From the IMG/VR virus record IMGVR_UViG_3300044646_003076: a DNA stretch of 64,000 bases. The stretch is one strand, 5' to 3'. Made by a program: the position numbers and the translations under genes. Below the pieces are notes generated by a model. It worked only from the letters and a program-made list of their open reading frames with translations, ran no database searches and had not been told where the DNA came from. This DNA is from a virus. Every line of letters begins with the position of its first letter. The first letter of the stretch is position 1. This document shows positions 36,436 to 59,399 of the stretch, in pieces.

Positions 36436-37898
36436 TGGCTGATGTAACAATTCAAAAGAAAAATGAGATTTACATAAAACTCATATGTGAACCATACGTT
36501 CTTTATGAAATGGCACAATACTTCACCTTTGATGTTCCTGGTGCGAAGTATTCACCTGCATACAAAAAGGGTGGTTGGGATGGTAAGATTTCACTTCTCT
36601 CAACGTCTACTGGTGAAATCTATTGTGGTCTTTTGGATAGAATTATCGCTAAGCTGAAGATTCATGGATTTTCTTATGAATTTAAAGACAATAAGCAATA
36701 CGGCTTACCCTTTGAGATCAATCCAGAAATAACACTAGAAGGTGTCACTGGATTCATGAATGTTCTTGGACCAAAAGCCAATCTTATTCCCGATGATTAT
36801 CAAATTAATGCAGTATATGAATGTCTAAAGTACAACAGAAAAACAATCGTATCACCCACATCTTCTGGTAAAACATTCCAGATTTTTGGATTGGTTCGCT
36901 ATTATATGATGAAGAATTATAAGATTCTTATTGTCTTTCCTCAAACAAGTCTTATTCGGCAAACCTATAAAGAATTTGAAGACTATGGATTAGATTCAGA
37001 ATCTACTTGTCATATGATCTATCAAGGACAATATAAAAAATCAGATAAGCAAGTACATCTTTCAACTTATCAATCCATTTATGATCTAGATAAATCTTTT
37101 TTCAACCAATATGATGTTGTTATTGTTGATGAGTGTCACAGAACAACATCAAAGAGTCTTATTGGTATTATGAAGAAATGTCCTGACGTGAAGTATCGTT
37201 TTGGATTTACTGGAACTCTTAGTAACAACGATGATTCAAAAGCTCCTAACGAATTAACAATTTCTGGACTTTTTGGACCTTCTTATAGAACCACCAATAC
37301 CAAAGAACTCATTGAAAAAGGAAGAGTTTCACAATTAGATATTCGTTGTGTTGTTCTAAAGCACAAACCACAAAAGTTTGATCGTTATGAAGATGAAGTT
37401 CAATATCTTATTAGTAACGAAAAAAGAAACAATTTTATCTGCGATCTTTCTAGTAAACTCAACAACAACACTCTTGTTATATTCTCCAGAGTTGAGAGTC
37501 ATGGTCAACTGCTTTATGATATTCTAAAAGAAAATAAGAACAAAAAAATCTTCTTTATTCATGGTGGTGTTGAGGTTGAAGAGCGCGAAAGAGTTAGACA
37601 GATTTGTGAACAAGAAAATAATGCAATTATTATCGCATCTTATGGTGTCTTTAGTACCGGAATTAATATTAAGAATTTACACAACATCATATTGGCATCT
37701 TCTTCTAAAGGAAAAATTCGGATTCTTCAGACTATCGGTAGAGGATTAAGAAAACACAAGTCTAAAGATAGAGCAACTCTTTATGATATCGCTGATGATT
37801 GTGGAAAAAATTACACTCTTAATCATTTCTTAGAAAGAATCAAAATTTATAATGAAGAAGAATTTGATTATGACATTAAGACCATAGAACTCAAGTAA
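36435..37898 (+). CDS. uvsW: SF2 RNA-DNA/DNA-DNA helicase
   Basis: SPTSSGKT, VIVDECH, GFTGTL, STGINIKNLHN, LQTIGRGLRK. Confidence 0.96.
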   Translation: MADVTIQKKNEIYIKLICEPYVLYEMAQYFTFDVPGAKYSPAYKKGGWDGKISLLSTSTGEIYCGLLDRIIAKLKIHGFSYEFKDNKQYGLPFEINPEITLEGVTGFMNVLGPKANLIPDDYQINAVYECLKYNRKTIVSPTSSGKTFQIFGLVRYYMMKNYKILIVFPQTSLIRQTYKEFEDYGLDSESTCHMIYQGQYKKSDKQVHLSTYQSIYDLDKSFFNQYDVVIVDECHRTTSKSLIGIMKKCPDVKYRFGFTGTLSNNDDSKAPNELTISGLFGPSYRTTNTKELIEKGRVSQLDIRCVVLKHKPQKFDRYEDEVQYLISNEKRNNFICDLSSKLNNNTLVIFSRVESHGQLLYDILKENKNKKIFFIHGGVEVEERERVRQICEQENNAIIIASYGVFSTGINIKNLHNIILASSSKGKIRILQTIGRGLRKHKSKDRATLYDIADDCGKNYTLNHFLERIKIYNEEEFDYDIKTIELK

Positions 37899-38203
37899 TC
37901 TTTAATCTTAATATACTTTTTGATGTAGTGTGGAGTGTTTGGATTATATGCTACACTGCGACGAACAAGACAATGATCATCGGATGCTAGATGTTCTAGA
38001 ACTTTTGGTGGTGTGTTTGGATTATATGCTACACTGCGACGAACAAGACAATGATCATCGGATGCTAGATGTTCTAGAAATTTTGGTGGTGTGTTTGGAT
38101 TTAGTGCTACCCTATAACGAACCAACCAATCCTCATCGGTCGCTAGTTGTTCTAGAGTTTTTGGTGAAGTGTTTGGATTACTGGCTTGTTCAAGTTTGTT
38201 CAT
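37868..38203 (-). CDS. LRV/HEAT-like repeat protein A (three 26-aa repeats); ATG 38203 preferred over the track's TTG 38209
   Basis: Repeat NPNTPPKxLExLATDxxxxVRxxVAx; shared N-cap MNKLEQAS and C-cap NPNTPHYIKKYIKI. Confidence 0.85.
   Translation of the reverse strand: MNKLEQASNPNTSPKTLEQLATDEDWLVRYRVALNPNTPPKFLEHLASDDHCLVRRSVAYNPNTPPKVLEHLASDDHCLVRRSVAYNPNTPHYIKKYIKIKDYLSSMVLMS
37941..38096. repeat. Near-perfect 78-bp tandem duplication inside LRV protein A
   Basis: 37941-38018 and 38019-38096 differ at one base (Val vs Phe codon). Confidence 0.95.
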
Positions 38204-38408
38204 AATCAATTCTCATCTTTTGTATAAACTTGTTCACATTCACCTCTCCTCTTACATACAATAATAACTCTAGTTGTTGAAAATAATTCAAGATTTTTAT
38301 TCAGACAAGATAAATTTTTACCAGAATTACAAATCATAATCGTTGTTATGAAATCAAGCATTTAAGGTTCCTAATATAATTGCGTTGTTTATTATTATGA
38401 AAGAATTG

Positions 38409-38975
38409 TTATGTTTTATCTAACTTAGCTAGTTGTTCTTGAATTTTAATATACTTTTTGATGTAGTGTGGTGTGTTTGGATTTTGTGCTACTCCACAAC
38501 GAACATCAGAATTCTTATTGGTCGCTAGTTGTTCTAGTGCTTTTGGTGGTGTGTTTGGATTACATGCTACCCAATAACGAATAGAATAATCATCATCAGT
38601 CGCTAGTTGTTCTAGGGCTTTTGGTGGTGTGTTTGGGTTTTGTGCTAACGCCACACAAATATAATACCTATCATTGGTCACAAAACTCTTTATTGTCGTT
38701 GGTTGGGTATCTGAAATTTTTAATGCTTGCCAACAAATTTTCCAGCCCTCATCTGCCATTAGAAGTTCTAATGTTTCAGGTGAAGTGTTTGGATTTCTTG
38801 CTACTCCACAACGAACCCAATACTCTTCATCAGTAGCTAGACGCTCTAGCTCTTCTCGTGGTGTGTTTGGATTACATGCTACCCAATAACGAATAGAATA
38901 ATCATCATCAGTCGCTAGTTTTTCTAGAGTTTTTGGTGAAGTGTTTGGATTACTGGCTTGTTCAAGTTTGTTCAT
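38409..38975 (-). CDS. LRV/HEAT-like repeat protein B (six repeats, two of them degenerate)
   Basis: Same caps and repeat consensus; ATGA overlap with the upstream paralogue. Confidence 0.87.
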   Translation of the reverse strand: MNKLEQASNPNTSPKTLEKLATDDDYSIRYWVACNPNTPREELERLATDEEYWVRCGVARNPNTSPETLELLMADEGWKICWQALKISDTQPTTIKSFVTNDRYYICVALAQNPNTPPKALEQLATDDDYSIRYWVACNPNTPPKALEQLATNKNSDVRCGVAQNPNTPHYIKKYIKIQEQLAKLDKT

Positions 38976-39451
38976 AATCTAGCTAATTGGTCTTGAATTT
39001 TAAGATACTTTTTGATGTAGTGTGGTGTGTTTGGATTTCTTGCTACACATTCACGAACCTCAGAACTCTTATCGGTCGCTAGGAGTTCTAGTGTTTTTGG
39101 ATGTGTATTTGGATTTCGTGCTACCCGATAATAAACATAAAAACATTCATCGGTCGCTAAAAGTTCTAGAGTTTCTGGTGGTGTGTTTTGATTATATGCT
39201 ACATTATAACGAACACCAGAATTCTCATCGGTTGCCAGTTGTTCTAGGATTTCTAGTGGAGTGTTTAGATTTTCTGCTACAACAATACGGACACGATAAT
39301 CCTCATCGGTTGCTAGTTGTACTAAAATTTTTTGTGGTGTGTTTGGGTTATGTGCTACACAACAACGAACACCAGATTCCTCATCGGTTGCCAGAATTTC
39401 TATTACATTTGGTGGTGTATTTGGATCTCTAGCTTGTTCAAGTTTGTTCAT
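38972..39451 (-). CDS. LRV/HEAT-like repeat protein C (five repeats)
   Basis: Same caps and repeat consensus; ATGA overlaps on both sides. Confidence 0.87.
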   Translation of the reverse strand: MNKLEQARDPNTPPNVIEILATDEESGVRCCVAHNPNTPQKILVQLATDEDYRVRIVVAENLNTPLEILEQLATDENSGVRYNVAYNQNTPPETLELLATDECFYVYYRVARNPNTHPKTLELLATDKSSEVRECVARNPNTPHYIKKYLKIQDQLARL

Positions 39452-39798
39452 AACGTCGCCAGATGTTCTTGAATTTTAATATACTTTTTGATGTAGTGTG
39501 GTGTGTTTGGATTTAGTGCTACCCTATAACGAACAACAGAATTCTCATCGGTCGCTAGTTGTTCTAGGGCTTTTGGTGGTGTGTTTGGATGTATTGCTAC
39601 ACAATAACGAACACTAGAATCCTCATCGGTCGCTAGTTGTTCTAGGGCTTTTGGTGGTGTGTTTGGATTATGTGCTACCAAATAACGAACATTAGGATCC
39701 CCATTGGTGACTAAAAGTTCTAATAGTTTCGCCTGAGTATTTTGATTCCATATAGTATTTGGATCCAAAATAAAGTCAATAAAATTCACATTAGACAT
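39448..39798 (-). CDS. LRV/HEAT-like repeat protein D (three repeats, divergent N-terminus)
   Basis: Repeat consensus and HYIKKYIKI C-cap. Confidence 0.85.
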   Translation of the reverse strand: MSNVNFIDFILDPNTIWNQNTQAKLLELLVTNGDPNVRYLVAHNPNTPPKALEQLATDEDSSVRYCVAIHPNTPPKALEQLATDENSVVRYRVALNPNTPHYIKKYIKIQEHLATL

Positions 39799-39994
39799 AA
39801 TAAATTTTTCTCTTTGGTTGTTCTTTTCTTTTTACAATAAACTTATTAGCAGAATCAAAGGAATCAAAACATATTTCAACAGGAAAAACTTCTGCTTTGA
39901 TAAAAGGCATCCAAAAAAGAAGTAACTTTCGCTGTTGTGGATAAAATTTAATGTTTCCGTTTAAATCAGTTTTTTCAACAATACGGTAGATCAT
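39791..39994 (-). CDS. Small hypothetical protein (67 aa from ATG 39994)
   Basis: MIYRIVEKTDLNGNIKFYPQQRKLLLFW...; overlaps the start of LRV-D and lies in the same minus-strand run. Confidence 0.7.
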   Translation of the reverse strand: MIYRIVEKTDLNGNIKFYPQQRKLLLFWMPFIKAEVFPVEICFDSFDSANKFIVKRKEQPKRKIYYV

Positions 39995-40002
39995 TTTAGT
40001 AA

Positions 40003-40620
40003 TTAACAAAAAGAAGTAATAACAACATTAACGTGAGAAGTAGTTCTTTTAATTTTATTGATGATTTTCTTCCACCAAGATTGACGATATCTTGAAATCA
40101 TTTGGCTAAAATAACCACCTTGCGAGGTACTAATGATAACAAGATATTCTGTTGTTGGTAATATAGTCTCTAGAAGTTTCTGTGAAATCGTATCATCTTC
40201 ATCTACAATAACAACATCAAACCTATTATAACGATAACTATTGATTGATGAACAATTAAAAACGTTAACATTTTTAGATTTAATGAAAGGTTTAATGTCA
40301 TTTAATCTGGAATAGTTTGAGAAAAATACACCAACTTTCTTGTTACATAGTAAACCTAGATAATTGGCTAGATTAATAGTGAAGAAGGTTTTTCCAGATC
40401 GTCTAAATGTAGCAATTAATGTAATAGGACTTTTGAAACAAGAACGAAACCACTTTCTTTGATAACGTTTTAATCCTTTAGTCTCCACAAAAGAAGGATA
40501 GATTCTTGTTCCTTTAATGAAACAATTAAACTTTTCTAGTTCATTAGAGGGATTCTGAAACAACATGTTAGATGTTCTGACAGATTTTAATAACTTATTT
40601 AACGAGTTCTTGATATTCAA
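40003..40620 (-). CDS. Minimal terminase-like P-loop ATPase (no nuclease domain)
   Basis: Q-motif LKRYQ, Walker A FRRSGKT, Walker B DVVIVDE, motif III IISTSQG; 205 aa. Confidence 0.75.
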   Translation of the reverse strand: MNIKNSLNKLLKSVRTSNMLFQNPSNELEKFNCFIKGTRIYPSFVETKGLKRYQRKWFRSCFKSPITLIATFRRSGKTFFTINLANYLGLLCNKKVGVFFSNYSRLNDIKPFIKSKNVNVFNCSSINSYRYNRFDVVIVDEDDTISQKLLETILPTTEYLVIISTSQGGYFSQMISRYRQSWWKKIINKIKRTTSHVNVVITSFC

Positions 40621-40838: not shown

Positions 40839-40900
40839 TATTGTATTTGACGAACGATAGTGAGTCAATTCCCGAAGGGAATGATTAAATAATATTAGAA

Positions 40901-43362: not shown

Positions 43363-44535
43363 ATGAAAATTAATTTACTAAATGGTGATTCTTTATTAAT
43401 ACTTAAAGAATTTGATGATAATAGTATTGATTCCATTGTTTGCGATCCTCCATATGGATTGAGTTTTATGGGAAAAAAATGGGATTATGATGTTCCTTGT
43501 GTGGAGTTATGGGCAGAATGTCTACGAGTGTTGAAACCGGGTGGACATCTTTTGGCATTTGCTGGCACACGGACACAGCATAGAATGGCATGTAGAATTG
43601 AAGATGCTGGCTTTGAGATCCGGGATATGATTGCCTGGGTCTACGGGTCGGGGTTCCCGAAGTCGCTGGATGTGAGCAAGGCGATTGATAAAGCTGCGGG
43701 CGCGGAGCGGGAGGTGGTGGGGCAACAGCATCGCCCCGAAGGAAGGCAGTTTGCGGAGGGTGCCAGCGGCTTCGCGCGTGGGGCCGTTGACATCACCGCC
43801 CCCGCCACCCCCGAAGCCCAGCAGTGGTCCGGCTGGGGCACAGCTCTAAAACCAGCACTTGAACCAATTACTATGGCTCGTAAACCATTAGAAGGAACTG
43901 TTGCTTCTAATGTGCTGGAGCACGGCACCGGGGCGCTGAATGTGGATGGGTGCAGAGTGGCACATAATGAGGATTGTCGGATCATGGCTCCAAGTCAATC
44001 CAACATTGACAATCCAAGTGAAAAACTTCGGCAGGGTGGTAGAAGAGAAGAAACCCTGGAACTGAAACCCTCCGGCCGCTGGCCCGCCAACCTGATCACG
44101 GATGGCAGTGACGAGGTGGTGGGGTTATTTCCAGATAGGAAAACAACATGGGTTTCCCCCAAACATAAAAATAATCGTAGTGGTGAATTTCTTGGAGAAT
44201 TAAAACATCCTGGAGCACAGGGTTTCAATGACTCAGGTTCGGCTGCCCGTTTCTTTTATTGTGCTAAAACAAGCAAGAAAGAACGTGGTAACGGAAATAA
44301 CCATCCAACAGTTAAACCTATTGCGCTCATGCGCTATCTTTGTCGTCTAGTCACACCTCCTGGTGGCACAGTTCTTGATCCATTTATGGGCAGCGGTTCT
44401 ACAGGAATCGCGGCACTTCAAGAAAATTTTAATTTTATTGGTATAGAGTTGGATGAAAATTATTATAATATAGCAAAAGATCGCATAGACGTAGTTAAAA
44501 ATAAACCAACATTAGATGTATTATTTGACCTATGA
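43363..44535 (+). CDS. Beta-class amino (N4C/N6A) DNA methyltransferase
   Basis: Catalytic motif IV DSIVCDPPYG precedes NHPTVKPIALMRYL and SAM-binding motif I VLDPFMGSGSTG. Confidence 0.92.
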   Translation: MKINLLNGDSLLILKEFDDNSIDSIVCDPPYGLSFMGKKWDYDVPCVELWAECLRVLKPGGHLLAFAGTRTQHRMACRIEDAGFEIRDMIAWVYGSGFPKSLDVSKAIDKAAGAEREVVGQQHRPEGRQFAEGASGFARGAVDITAPATPEAQQWSGWGTALKPALEPITMARKPLEGTVASNVLEHGTGALNVDGCRVAHNEDCRIMAPSQSNIDNPSEKLRQGGRREETLELKPSGRWPANLITDGSDEVVGLFPDRKTTWVSPKHKNNRSGEFLGELKHPGAQGFNDSGSAARFFYCAKTSKKERGNGNNHPTVKPIALMRYLCRLVTPPGGTVLDPFMGSGSTGIAALQENFNFIGIELDENYYNIAKDRIDVVKNKPTLDVLFDL

Positions 44536-46284: not shown

Positions 46285-47004
46285 ATGTCTCAATCTCATT
46301 CTTTGTTTGAAGCATATCAGGCCGTTTACACACCTCAAGAGCAAGATGATTATCAACTTGTTTTAGATTATCTTGTTTCTGAGGGATATGTTGATGACGC
46401 GGATGAAGCCGAACTCGTTATTGAACAACTAGAAGACGATGTTATTGATGGTATTCTGGATGAAGTTAAGGGTTGTGGTGGTAAAGTGAATCCCGATAAC
46501 GGAGATTATGAAAATGGTTCTGGTTCTTCTAGGATGATGATGTCTCCTAGAAAGAAAGCTCTCGCTATGGCTAGACGCAAAGAAAATGAGGCAACTACAC
46601 CTCAACATCAGCGTCAAGCCGCTAAGATGCGCAGAGTTGCTAGTAATATGAAGGAAGAATTAGACGAGGCGAACAGAGCAGAAAGAGAATTTAAATTAAA
46701 CGATTCCGAAAAATTAGCAGCTAGAAATACTTCTTCTGCATATTTTAGGGTCTCACCTAAGGATCCCACTTCCCCCAATAGAATTAGAGCAAAGGGCTCG
46801 CTACATGCTGCGGATCAAGAGAAAAGACAAAAAACACACAAAGAAAAAAGAGGCATTAGAGAAGAATTAGACACCTACGATCTGGTTCTAGATTATCTTC
46901 TCTCTGAAGGTTTTGCTGATAATGAAGAAGCCGCTCTTCAGATTATGTCCAATATGAGCGAAGAGTGGATGGAAGAAGCTGTATCTCATTATGTGAATTC
47001 TTGA
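46285..47004 (+). CDS. Hypothetical putative internal head protein with two copies of a D.Y.LVLDYL.SEG domain
   Basis: DDYQLVLDYLVSEGYVDDADEA and DTYDLVLDYLLSEGFADNEEAA; late promoter at 46248. Confidence 0.7.
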   Translation: MSQSHSLFEAYQAVYTPQEQDDYQLVLDYLVSEGYVDDADEAELVIEQLEDDVIDGILDEVKGCGGKVNPDNGDYENGSGSSRMMMSPRKKALAMARRKENEATTPQHQRQAAKMRRVASNMKEELDEANRAEREFKLNDSEKLAARNTSSAYFRVSPKDPTSPNRIRAKGSLHAADQEKRQKTHKEKRGIREELDTYDLVLDYLLSEGFADNEEAALQIMSNMSEEWMEEAVSHYVNS

Positions 47005-47110: not shown

Positions 47111-47407
47111 ATGAGTGAAAATCATTTTTGGAGATACAATGAAGATAAGATTATTCGTCAGTTAGAAGAATATCTTAAAGGAACGTATAATCAACACTAT
47201 GTTGATAGAGTTAATGGTGGACAAGAACAAACGCTTGATAAAATCAAATATAACCGAAGAGAAGGTTTTTGTGCCGGGAATGTAACAAAGTATATTGATC
47301 GTTACGACGCAAAAGGAACACCGAGAGCTGATCTCTTTAAAGTTTTGCATTATACGATGTTATTGATCAATCATCTAAATCTTATTGAAAATAATGGACA
47401 AAGTTAA
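47111..47407 (+). CDS. Conserved hypothetical protein (DUF3310/SaV-like) upstream of the sliding clamp
   Basis: WRYNEDKII...TYNQHY; GFCAGNVTKYIDRY..KGTPRADLFKVLHY. Confidence 0.75.
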   Translation: MSENHFWRYNEDKIIRQLEEYLKGTYNQHYVDRVNGGQEQTLDKIKYNRREGFCAGNVTKYIDRYDAKGTPRADLFKVLHYTMLLINHLNLIENNGQS

Positions 47408-47858
47408 ATTAGCTAGAGATCCAAACACAACACCAGAAATCTTAGAACAATTAGCGACTGATGAGGATTATTGGGTTCGTTATCGTGTAGCATATAATCC
47501 AAACATACCAAAAAAAGTTCTAGAACAACTAGCGACCGAAAAGGATTCTAGTGTTCGTGAATGTGTAGCACTAAATCCAAACACAACACAAAAAGTTCTA
47601 GAACAACTGGCGACCGATGAGAATTATCTTGTTCGTGAATGTGTAGCATATAATCCAAACACACCACCAAAAGCACTAGAGCAATTAGCGACCGATGAGT
47701 ATTGGGATGTTCGTTATCGGGTGACACAAAATCCAAACACTCCGATTCATATATTGAAGATTCTCAGTAAAGATAGTGATCGTGAAACTAGAAATAGTGC
47801 ATTGAAAAACTTAAAACCCAAACAATTAGAACTTGATTTATCATTTAAATCTTATTAA
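47385..47858 (+). CDS. LRV/HEAT-like repeat protein E (four repeats; start possibly ATG 47394)
   Basis: Same 26-aa repeat; alternative C-cap NPNTPIHILK. Confidence 0.87.
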   Translation: MKIMDKVKLARDPNTTPEILEQLATDEDYWVRYRVAYNPNIPKKVLEQLATEKDSSVRECVALNPNTTQKVLEQLATDENYLVRECVAYNPNTPPKALEQLATDEYWDVRYRVTQNPNTPIHILKILSKDSDRETRNSALKNLKPKQLELDLSFKSY

Positions 47859-47863
47859 GAATT

Positions 47864-48256
47864 ATGAACAAATTTGAACAAGCAAAAAATCCAAACACAC
47901 CACCAAATGTACTAAAAATTCTAGCGACCGATAAGAATTATTGGGTTCGTTGTTGTGTAGCACATAATCCAAATACTTCAACAAAAACACTTGAACAACT
48001 AGCGACCGATGAGGATTCTTATGTTCGTTGGAGTGTGGCACAAAATCCAAACACTCCAATAAAAACTCTGGAACTACTAGCAACCGATGATAAATGGTAT
48101 GTTCGTCGTGGTGTAGCACTAAACCGAAACACACCACCAGAAATTCTTGAACAACTAGCAACCGATGAAGAATGGGATGTTCGTTATGGAGTATCAATAA
48201 ATCCAAACACTCCGATTCATATATTGAAGAGTCTCACTCAAACAATTAGAACTTGA
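47864..48256 (+). CDS. LRV/HEAT-like repeat protein F (four repeats)
   Basis: N-cap MNKFEQAK; repeats; C-cap NPNTPIHILK. Confidence 0.87.
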   Translation: MNKFEQAKNPNTPPNVLKILATDKNYWVRCCVAHNPNTSTKTLEQLATDEDSYVRWSVAQNPNTPIKTLELLATDDKWYVRRGVALNRNTPPEILEQLATDEEWDVRYGVSINPNTPIHILKSLTQTIRT

Positions 48257-58440: not shown

Positions 58441-59399
58441 ATGATAAACAACTAGAATATGTTGTTGAAGTCTTAGAAAGAGAGATTTCCGGTTATTCAA
58501 AAGATTATGTACCGGAGAGAATCAGTCTTCTCAGAGAGTGCGTGAGAGAGTTAAAAGGTGAAGTAACACAATTGACAGATTATCATTTACAAGAACTACA
58601 AAAATGTAAAGATGATATTGTTTATTTTGCGGAAAAATATGTAACGATCAATAACGTTTTTTCGGGAGCGGTGAGATTTAACCCATATCCTCATCAAAAA
58701 GAATTACTTAGGGTTATACAAAATAACAATTATGTTATTGGTAAATTGATGAGGCAATCTGGGAAAACGGTGTGTGGTATAGTTGCAATTTTACATGAAT
58801 TGGTGTTTGGTGAACCCAAAACAATCGGAATATTATCATATAAAAAAGAACAATCTAGACAAATTTTGGATACTATAAAATTATATTATAGCTGTCTTCC
58901 TGATTGGATGACCTTTAAAATTGTAAAAGATAATAAAGAACAATTTCAATTAGAAAAGGGTTCATATGTTGATGTAATAACAGTTCGCTCTTTTTGTGGA
59001 AAAACTTATGATACTATTCTTCTTGACGAGTATGCATTTTTATTTGGGGGTAAAGTATTTCTTTTAGATGATAAACAAAAAAATTCATCAGAAGCTGTTG
59101 ATCTAAAAGGACTTAAAGAATATAATGATTTTTGGAAAGTGTTTCTTCCCCTTATGACTTGCCAAAATGACCAAAGAATTTTAATTTTGAGCACCATTTC
59201 TTCTACTAATAAAAATCATTACTTTAATAAATTGTGGTTAGAAAGTTCTAGGGCGAATAACAATTTTGTTGCTTTTGAATCTAACTGGAAAGATTATCCA
59301 GAATTAGATGAAAAATGGAGTTCTTCAATTGTTAAAAATATCGGCGAAGGAGCTTTTTCTCTTGAATATGAATGTAAAATTGAAGAAGATAGCCCGTAA
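58437..59399 (+). CDS. Terminase-large-subunit ATPase-domain paralogue lacking the nuclease domain
   Basis: KCKDDIVYFAEKYV.I...F.PYPHQ.ELL; MRQSGKT; ILLDEYAF; ILST; NW.DYPELDEKW...F.LEYEC. Aligns by eye with the N-terminal half of gp17 in this window and ends where the nuclease would begin. Confidence 0.88.
   Translation: MNDKQLEYVVEVLEREISGYSKDYVPERISLLRECVRELKGEVTQLTDYHLQELQKCKDDIVYFAEKYVTINNVFSGAVRFNPYPHQKELLRVIQNNNYVIGKLMRQSGKTVCGIVAILHELVFGEPKTIGILSYKKEQSRQILDTIKLYYSCLPDWMTFKIVKDNKEQFQLEKGSYVDVITVRSFCGKTYDTILLDEYAFLFGGKVFLLDDKQKNSSEAVDLKGLKEYNDFWKVFLPLMTCQNDQRILILSTISSTNKNHYFNKLWLESSRANNNFVAFESNWKDYPELDEKWSSSIVKNIGEGAFSLEYECKIEEDSP

Follow-up and report, generated by a model that had tools for sequence, protein, structure and literature searches.

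The Six LRV Genes of the Window

The IMG/VR virus record IMGVR_UViG_3300044646_003076 (G000; 179,526 bp, 34% G+C) was examined in a stretch of 64,000 nucleotides, referred to here as the window (G000:C1:10962-74961). The window encodes six small proteins built from 26-residue leucine-rich repeat variant (LRV) units, with four of the genes on the minus strand and two on the plus strand. They are members of a multigene family of small stand-alone alpha-solenoid proteins of the LRV (HEAT-like) type, which is lineage-specific and evolves fast. An earlier sequence-only reading had described these genes as an array of paralogs with fixed hypervariable positions and had proposed that they form a natural repertoire of binders. 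The observation is confirmed, and the interpretation is partly supported.

All six open reading frames (ORFs) exist as described, and each product is assigned to the Pfam LRV family PF01816 (E 2e-14 to 4e-36), with whole-protein scores of 53-121 bits against a gathering cut-off of 21.6 bits and 2-5 matched units per protein (Table 1). Matches to Pfam HEAT_2 are marginal (19-32 bits against a cut-off of 27.7), the sole PHROGs match is phrog_20647, annotated as unknown function, and the only significant PDB sequence match for the repeat proteins is 1LRV. The earlier estimate of about 25 repeats agrees with the 24 clear 26-residue units and the one or two degenerate units of LRV gene 2. Of the shared N-cap, the form MNK[LF]EQA is present on four of the six genes. 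The shared C-caps are found as reported, with NPNTPHYIKKY on the four minus-strand genes and NPNTPIHILK on the two plus-strand genes.

LRV gene 4 is the first LRV gene in the coupled minus-strand row. The start of LRV gene 2 overlaps the stop of LRV gene 3 (ATGA), and the 3′ end of LRV gene 1 overlaps the 3′ end of a convergent uvsW homologue. On the plus strand, LRV gene 5 is placed between a DUF3310 gene and the sliding-clamp gene. Two central units of LRV gene 2 lack the VR..VA motif (ICWQAL, ICVALA) and could represent a decaying unit or a specialised insert.

Table 1. Positions of the LRV genes and associated elements (window coordinates unless a genome is named).
Feature	Position	Strand	Description
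LRV gene 1	37868..38209	-	N-cap MNKLEQA (ATG at 38203), 3 units (two near-identical), C-cap NPNTPHYIKKY; PF01816 E 4.6e-21
LRV gene 2	38409..38975	-	188 aa; N-cap, 5 good units and a degenerate centre, C-cap; PF01816 E 4.1e-36
LRV gene 3	38972..39451	-	159 aa; N-cap, 5 units, C-cap; structure-modelled protein; PF01816 E 3.9e-34
LRV gene 4	39448..39798	-	116 aa; own leader with degenerate first unit, 3 units, C-cap; PF01816 E 2.1e-14
LRV gene 5	47385..47858	+	154-157 aa; 4 units, second C-end type (NPNTPIHILK and tail); PF01816 E 1.9e-23
LRV gene 6	47864..48256	+	130 aa; N-cap MNKFEQA, 4 units, C-end NPNTPIHILK; PF01816 E 6.7e-27
Stem-loop and sigma70-like promoter (candidate)	40840..40882	-	ATTCCC-TTCG-GGGAAT, then TTGACT-17-TACAAT; heads the block ending in four LRV genes
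Second LRV subfamily member (L062)	G000 172133-172585		
Second LRV subfamily member	G001 47368-47820		
Second LRV subfamily member	G001 39712-40326		
Second LRV subfamily member	G001 83882-84286		
Second LRV subfamily member	G001 58683-59270		

Family Size, Architecture, and Distribution

The window holds only part of the family. The description of an expanded paralogous family of capped single-domain LRV/HEAT-like solenoids stands, yet it undercounted the members: the record contains 24 LRV genes rather than six. These are distributed over 13 loci, comprise 99 good 26-residue units, and occupy 10.6 kb, or 5.9% of the record, in which PF01816 has 75 matches. The reading frame is intact in all 24 genes. 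A typical gene is composed of an N-cap (MNK[LF]EQA.DPNTP), 2-8 units, and a C-cap (NPNTP[HR]Y[IL]KKY[IL]KIQ.[HQ]L..L). Many loci are pairs or rows of genes with a stop-start overlap (TTATGA), in which a gene with its own leader comes first and is followed by an MNK-type gene.

A sister phage has at least 35 LRV genes with 125 units, at syntenic positions. Two fragments of this phage, G001 and G002, are available; the closest capsid gene (83% identity) occurs in the same metagenome. One of its LRV proteins (G002 36917-39136, L056; 739 residues) looks like several fused arrays with degenerate stretches between them. A second LRV subfamily occurs in both phages and is distinguished by an N-terminal leader of its own and by another type of C-terminal tail (NPNY..., followed by a strand-helix-helix-like stretch). 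This tail is a Pfam ribbon-helix-helix domain in the metagenome relative P0003; no Pfam match to that domain is obtained for the tail of the G000 copy.

Among 50,697 GenBank phage records, a detectable homologue is found in only one, that of a Moorella phage. Homologues in metagenomes number in the hundreds, and small LRV proteins form numerous clusters in the ESM Atlas, viral for the most part. It follows that uncultured phages commonly carry the family, which has hardly been studied. The nearest cell-encoded relatives found for the repeat proteins are those of a Prochloraceae metagenome-assembled genome and of Calothrix (46% identity). The name AlkC, given by JGI to some relatives, is supported by no domain match obtained for the family.

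Variable Positions and Their Composition

The hypervariable positions named in the sequence-only reading (16-19, 22-23, and 26) are borne out by the entropy profile over the 99 units of the record, with 2.0-3.5 bits at these seven positions, which carry almost all of the variation. Entropy is below 1.3 bits at 16 of the 19 other positions; positions 6 and 11 have 1.6-1.7 bits, and position 8 varies among A, T, V, and I (2.2 bits). The resulting seven-residue signature is unique in 92 of the 99 units.

The core variable positions (17-19, 22, 23, and 26) contain 17% Tyr, 11% Trp, 10% Asp, 10% Ser, 8% Cys, and 8% Arg, in agreement with the reported richness in W, Y, C, and R; Asp and Glu are enriched too. 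Relative to the expectation from base composition, the seven variable positions are enriched in Trp (8.9-fold), Glu (4.5-fold), Asp (3.3-fold), Tyr (2.6-fold), and Cys (2.2-fold), and they are depleted 5-20-fold in Ile, Phe, Val, and Thr (0.05-0.16 times expectation). Their composition is thus far from neutral. Together, Trp, Tyr, Phe, and Cys account for 37% of the variable sites, compared with 17% in cyanobacterial chromosomal relatives, for which the sample is small (23 units).

The sister phage has the same variable positions and the same composition. At least six of the seven variable residues are kept there in 15 of the 99 units, compared with 1.4 expected by chance. The term "repertoire" therefore has to be qualified, in that part of the unit set is stable and specific and not freely hypervariable; this part is presumably tuned to conserved partners.

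Fold and Location of the Variable Residues

The product of LRV gene 3 was modelled with AlphaFold using a 72-row alignment, resulting in a predicted local distance difference test score (pLDDT) of 90.3 and a predicted template modelling score (pTM) of 0.81, with residues 26-60 poorly predicted; a single-sequence model (pLDDT 50.7) was discarded. In the model, units 3-5 consist of two helices each, and the C-cap forms one long helix. Helix A extends over unit positions 6-12 and helix B over positions 18-26 in the well-predicted units. The top Foldseek match for the model is 1LRV (probability 1.0, E 1.9e-3), while alphaRep chains are matched at a template modelling (TM) score of 0.53. The proteins that match best in a viral structure library come from uncultured phages and are annotated as "leucine rich repeat variant" but uncharacterised.

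Positions 19, 22, 23, and 26 correspond to i, i+3, i+4, and i+7 of helix B. On the basis of the modelled span of this helix and of helix geometry, they are predicted to fall on one stripe of helix B, opposite the core residues V20 and V24. Positions 16-18 form the loop leading into helix B in the AlphaFold model. The motif D.D..VR..[AV]A. aligns in register with the alphaRep repeat. Model and alignment together place the variable residues in a helix B stripe and the preceding loop, in the register of the alphaRep binding positions.

Rate of Change at Variable and Framework Codons

Variable and framework codons differ in the proportions of amino acid-changing (pN) and silent (pS) differences. 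When all unit pairs are pooled, the variable codons have a pN of 0.52 and a pS of 0.33, and the framework has a pN of 0.145 and a pS of 0.27. At positions 17-19, the third base is mostly T throughout and the first two bases change, such that pN/pS is 2.4-2.7. In one pair of units, all 57 framework bases are identical and 13 of the 21 variable bases are different. As an illustration rather than an estimate, 216 unit pairs chosen for at most 3 differences among the 57 framework nucleotides differ by 3.9% at framework nucleotides and by 40% at the 21 nucleotides of the variable codons.

A similar picture is obtained from 13 syntenic ortholog pairs of G000 and the sister phage. The Jukes-Cantor-corrected ratio of amino acid-changing to silent divergence (dN/dS, omega) is 1.69 for the variable codons (bootstrap confidence interval (CI) 1.28-2.25) and 0.33 for the framework (0.28-0.40). 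The elevated dN/dS foreseen for the variable sites is thus present, as a value that mixes substitution with cassette replacement because paralogous sequence is imported. Caps and scaffold are strongly conserved (omega 0.33-0.41).

The locus at G000 176675-177055 was traced through four related phage genomes. Among G000, L070, and L071, pN is 0.41 at the variable positions and 0.04 in the caps; with the sister phage, the variable pN is 0.43. The two genes directly upstream have pS values of 0.07 and 0.12 and protein identities of about 89-99%. At this locus, the variable surfaces are thus almost wholly replaced at a divergence that leaves the two upstream neighbours at this level of identity. 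The silent divergence of the LRV gene is 0.19-0.25, above the 0.07-0.12 of its neighbours, and therefore points to the import of paralogous sequence. In the pooled units, in the orthologs, and at this single locus, amino acid change at the variable positions exceeds silent change, consistent with the diversifying change that had been suggested; with the framework-matched unit pairs, these make four independent lines that agree. None of the six window proteins was found in the protein-cluster collection; the paralog P0013, which lies outside the window, and its orthologs were used instead.

Cassette Exchange and Concerted Evolution

Exact blocks of 51-108 nt that include variable cassettes are common to genes up to about 118 kb apart, and they therefore indicate cassette exchange between paralogs. 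These blocks were detected as maximal exact matches, as a BLAST self-comparison merges the arrays into long matches of about 78% identity and masks the mosaic blocks. A 108-nt stretch of units 2-3 of LRV gene 3 recurs exactly in a paralog at a distance of 65 kb (G000 115611-116096), and LRV gene 4 has exact 77-nt blocks in common with G000 157049 and G000 104897. Single-unit tandem duplicates occur inside LRV genes, and the number of units differs between syntenic orthologs (233 versus 75 residues; 219 versus 167).

The constant part of the unit gives exact matches of 45-49 nt across many genes, a length that could be enough to act as a homology arm. Framework codons had been described as nearly invariant even at third positions, and each is indeed retained in 80-93 of the 99 units: GTT in 90, CGT in 93, GTA in 86, GCA in 83, CCA in 80, and AAC in 82. 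Several codons that are fixed in both phages are rare in the genome, for example CGT for Arg21, GCG for Ala13, AAC for Asn3, and CTA for Leu9 and Leu12; the genome-wide shares are 18% for CGT among Arg codons, 12% for GCG among Ala codons, and 20% for AAC among Asn codons. The two framework valines use different codons, each of which is fixed. Fixed rare codons and exact constant blocks would be expected from the concerted evolution of a multicopy family. The diversity of the variable codons must therefore be maintained against homogenisation.

The Phage and the Genomic Context of the LRV Genes

By its gene content, the source is a T4-like phage. The IMG/VR label on the record is provirus, whereas its genes are typical of lytic T4-like phages. 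The record is 83% complete. Proteins of the same genome are indexed on a contig of 244,489 bp, and the record was therefore probably trimmed from this complete phage contig, roughly 65 kb of which lie outside it. Synechococcus phages B3 and B23 have major capsid proteins with 71.5% identity to that of the record, yet no psbA/psbD or hli was found in the 179.5-kb record, and a cyanobacterial host is not established by these genes. Very large tail-fibre-like genes are also present in the genome.

In the window, the LRV genes are flanked by homologues of UvsW, gp55, gp47, gp46, gp45, and gp44. Both LRV sites are empty in a related T4-like contig, which carries a single LRV gene elsewhere; the window copies are therefore insertions into a conserved replication module. 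The four minus-strand LRV genes are the last of a block oriented opposite to the flanking T4-core genes; this block also contains three small ORFs and a P-loop ORF. The stem-loop and sigma70-like element at the head of this block (Table 1) is a candidate early promoter. A like arrangement precedes another LRV gene (L067 15290-15351; G000 155289-155350). Such an element resembles the promoter-early stem-loop cassettes of T4-type hyperplastic regions. Generic scans for sigma70 promoters and terminators gave no enrichment over shuffles, and the individual stem-loop/promoter elements serve as hints. Early expression of the LRV genes is plausible from these elements.

Other ORFs of the region have features of their own. 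The P-loop ORF (40003-40620, minus strand; 205 residues) is weakly similar to the large-terminase ATPase (phrog_2, E 5e-7) and lies far from the packaging genes. A 390-residue ORF (43363-44535, plus strand) separates the gp47 and gp46 homologues, two genes that normally lie side by side; G+C is locally higher (0.39) and several long spurious frames overlap it. On the basis of sequence motifs and an N6_N4_Mtase match on a different contig, it is a putative DNA methyltransferase. A very acidic 239-residue ORF (46285-47004, plus strand) repeats LVLDYL[VL]SEG[YF][AV]D at both ends, where a weak LisH match is seen.

Proposed Function

The reading considered here in full is that the variable stripe is a binding surface, that each paralog has its own partner, and that these partners belong to the variable proteins of the host, for example components of defence systems; its chances are judged to be slightly better than even. 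New combinations arise from tandem duplication of units, gain and loss of units, and exchange of whole cassettes between dispersed paralogs. The variable stripes of stacked units would form one continuous recognition surface, via which each paralog could bind a different partner. Binding would be stoichiometric, with the protein acting as an inhibitor, decoy, or adaptor, a mode suggested by the lack of a catalytic domain. The likeliest partners would be variable host proteins encountered within the infected cell, with defence proteins as the first candidates; partners of this kind would account for the copy number as well as for the turnover seen between near-identical phages. Anti-defence would be the most plausible target class.

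Several points weigh against this reading. Four of the window proteins have no match at E 0.01 or better among the PADLOC defence-system models. The predicted clustering on a surface is based on helix periodicity and the alphaRep match rather than on a measured surface. Part of the excess change is import of paralogous cassettes, so that omega is not a clean estimate of selection at single sites, and framework silent sites that may be slowed by gene conversion would inflate the ratios in which they are used.

The same data have to be weighed under other explanations. Rapid turnover between near-identical phages, the movement of cassettes between paralogs, and the strong conservation of caps and scaffold would also be seen if the proteins performed a common job through scaffold and caps while the exposed stripe changed to evade host immune sensors, as in antigenic variation. 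Such escape leaves unexplained the retention of 24-35 copies and the 15% of units that keep their exact variable residues in the sister phage. The enrichment in Trp, Tyr, and Cys is not accounted for either: Trp and Tyr are typical of binding interfaces, and escape alone does not obviously favour such residues. Escape is thus considered improbable. A low probability is also given to concerted evolution with relaxed surface constraint, in which gene conversion freezes the scaffold, exposed sites drift, and the expansion is selfish or structurally trivial. The rare framework codons fixed in both phages and the many exact constant blocks of 45-49 nt are both hallmarks of concerted evolution. However, drift cannot lift amino acid change above the silent rate, and even the lower CI bound of omega is 1.28; nor does it account for a variable pN of 0.41 next to genes with a pS of 0.07-0.12. 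Moreover, drift at 34% G+C would enrich Ile, Phe, Lys, and Asn rather than Trp, Tyr, and Cys, and the intact state of all 24 frames also argues against it.

The partners could instead be proteins of the phage itself, with the LRV proteins serving as chaperones or adaptors for variable phage parts or with coupled neighbours binding each other. The many ATGA-overlapping pairs of a leader-type gene and an MNK-type gene are in favour of this, as are the very large tail-fibre-like genes. The LRV loci are, however, located in replication and small-ORF regions and not beside structural genes, and nothing ties given paralogs to given phage proteins, which makes this explanation unlikely. As to the origin of the diversity, the restriction of variation to codon positions 1-2 of a few codons, most of them NNT, bears a superficial likeness to the output of a diversity-generating retroelement (DGR) or a similar targeted hypermutation system. 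DGR action was rejected and has almost no probability: no match to the reverse transcriptase family PF00078 was obtained in the 179.5-kb record (83% complete), TGG, a codon impossible from an AAY template, is among the commonest variable codons, about 100 targets are scattered over the genome, and contigs of at least three metagenome samples encode one paralog's product unchanged. Hardly more can be said for the link to bilin lyases and phycobilisomes drawn in the sequence-only reading, or for the explanation that the LRV proteins are NblB- or CpcE-like HEAT proteins with which a cyanophage remodels light harvesting. The cyanobacterial origin of the nearest cellular relatives (46% identity) and the resemblance of the capsid protein to cyanophage ones are in favour of such a link. 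Against this, the NCBIfam NblB model scores 21.7 bits where the cut-off is 300, no PBS-lyase HEAT family is among the Pfam matches of the window proteins, psbA/psbD and hli are missing from the record, and a single conserved substrate is ill-suited to hypervariable surfaces; the link is not upheld and is very improbable. A DNA-mimic or DNA-binding reading was rejected as well, as the net charge of the family proteins ranges from -15 to +4 with no common sign.

Returning to the host-directed binder reading, a more specific form of it is offered tentatively and is doubtful at present. According to this form, the family would be a combinatorial binder repertoire in which about 100 interchangeable 33-nt cassettes, flanked by exact homology arms of 45-49 nt, recombine among some 24-36 genes and are selected against changing host defence proteins. 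If true, it would constitute a germline, cassette-based counter-immunity library in a bacterial virus, with a logic like that of variable lymphocyte receptor (VLR) assembly in lampreys or of cassette variation in pilins and variant surface glycoproteins (VSGs).

Comparison with Known Repeat Families

The Azotobacter vinelandii LRV protein (1LRV) has the same motif, D.D..VR..VA., followed by a Pro-containing turn. Its units have 24 residues, as counted on the alignment, whereas those of the phage family have 26 residues with an NPNTP turn and are enclosed by dedicated N- and C-caps. 1LRV is the product of a single cellular gene, with an N-terminal Fe-S domain and no known function. The phage LRV proteins, in contrast, are encoded by dozens of paralogs, and their variable surfaces are aromatic.

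AlphaRep proteins, which are synthetic binders patterned on natural thermostable HEAT-like repeats (PDB 3LTJ, 3LTM, and 4JW2), resemble the phage family in having a two-helix solenoid, caps, a variable number of units, and a D.D..VR..AA. core, and in both, positions 18, 19, 22, 23, and 26 on the second helix are variable. The randomised positions of alphaRep (18, 19, 22, 23, 26, and 30) form the concave face and make most of the contacts in solved complexes (PMC3754942). The natural repeats from which alphaRep was derived accept Pro at position 18 and prefer small residues at position 23 (PMC3754942), as do the phage units. There are several differences between the two. AlphaRep units have 31 residues and phage units 26, and the phmmer match to 8AW4_B is not significant (E 0.61); the likeness lies in motif register and fold (TM 0.53), not in family membership. 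Cys is excluded from alphaRep and abundant in the phage family. Binding is proven for alphaRep, while for the phage family it is inferred.

The nearest precedents are the repeat-protein expansions of giant viruses and the zinc-ribbon expansion in phage G. Repeat proteins of giant viruses and of the Wolbachia phage WO act on host proteins. The ankyrin and other repeats of amoebal giant viruses (PMC5753266) and the ankyrins of phage WO (PMC3173496) are likewise lineage-specific expansions of a protein-binding repeat fold in a large viral genome. They differ in fold and in the domain of the host, and the phage LRV units are far more uniform and their proteins much smaller; cassette-level exchange and an omega above 1 are seen for the phage LRV family. 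Bacillus phage G contains about 35 copies of a zinc ribbon, for which a role in DNA binding or transcription has been proposed (PMC7824862). These are also a small domain in dozens of copies, with a different fold and no hypervariable surface reported (PMC7824862). The variable proteins of DGRs, too, combine a fixed scaffold with variation in few codons; the phage LRV family, unlike them, has no reverse transcriptase in the 179.5-kb record and no template/variable repeat pair, and its variation is between genomes and not within one population. A search of the accessible literature for LRV or HEAT repeat families in phages yielded no description of such a family, in keeping with the earlier view that this is not a described phage system.

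Biological Significance

Should the LRV proteins prove to be binders, the clade would amount to a natural experiment in the design of repeat-protein libraries. In the family, units that vary in number are set in a capped scaffold, modules are shuffled, and the seven diversified positions of each unit consist mainly of Tyr, Trp, Cys, Asp, and Glu; protein engineers have reached the same rules for alphaRep and DARPin libraries. Small and apparently stable, the scaffold accepts almost any residue at the seven positions and could serve as a binder scaffold. As binders, the proteins would add a class of host-directed phage proteins that evolve by cassette exchange and not by the acquisition of new genes, and they would offer a tractable way toward the host proteins that large phages must neutralise.

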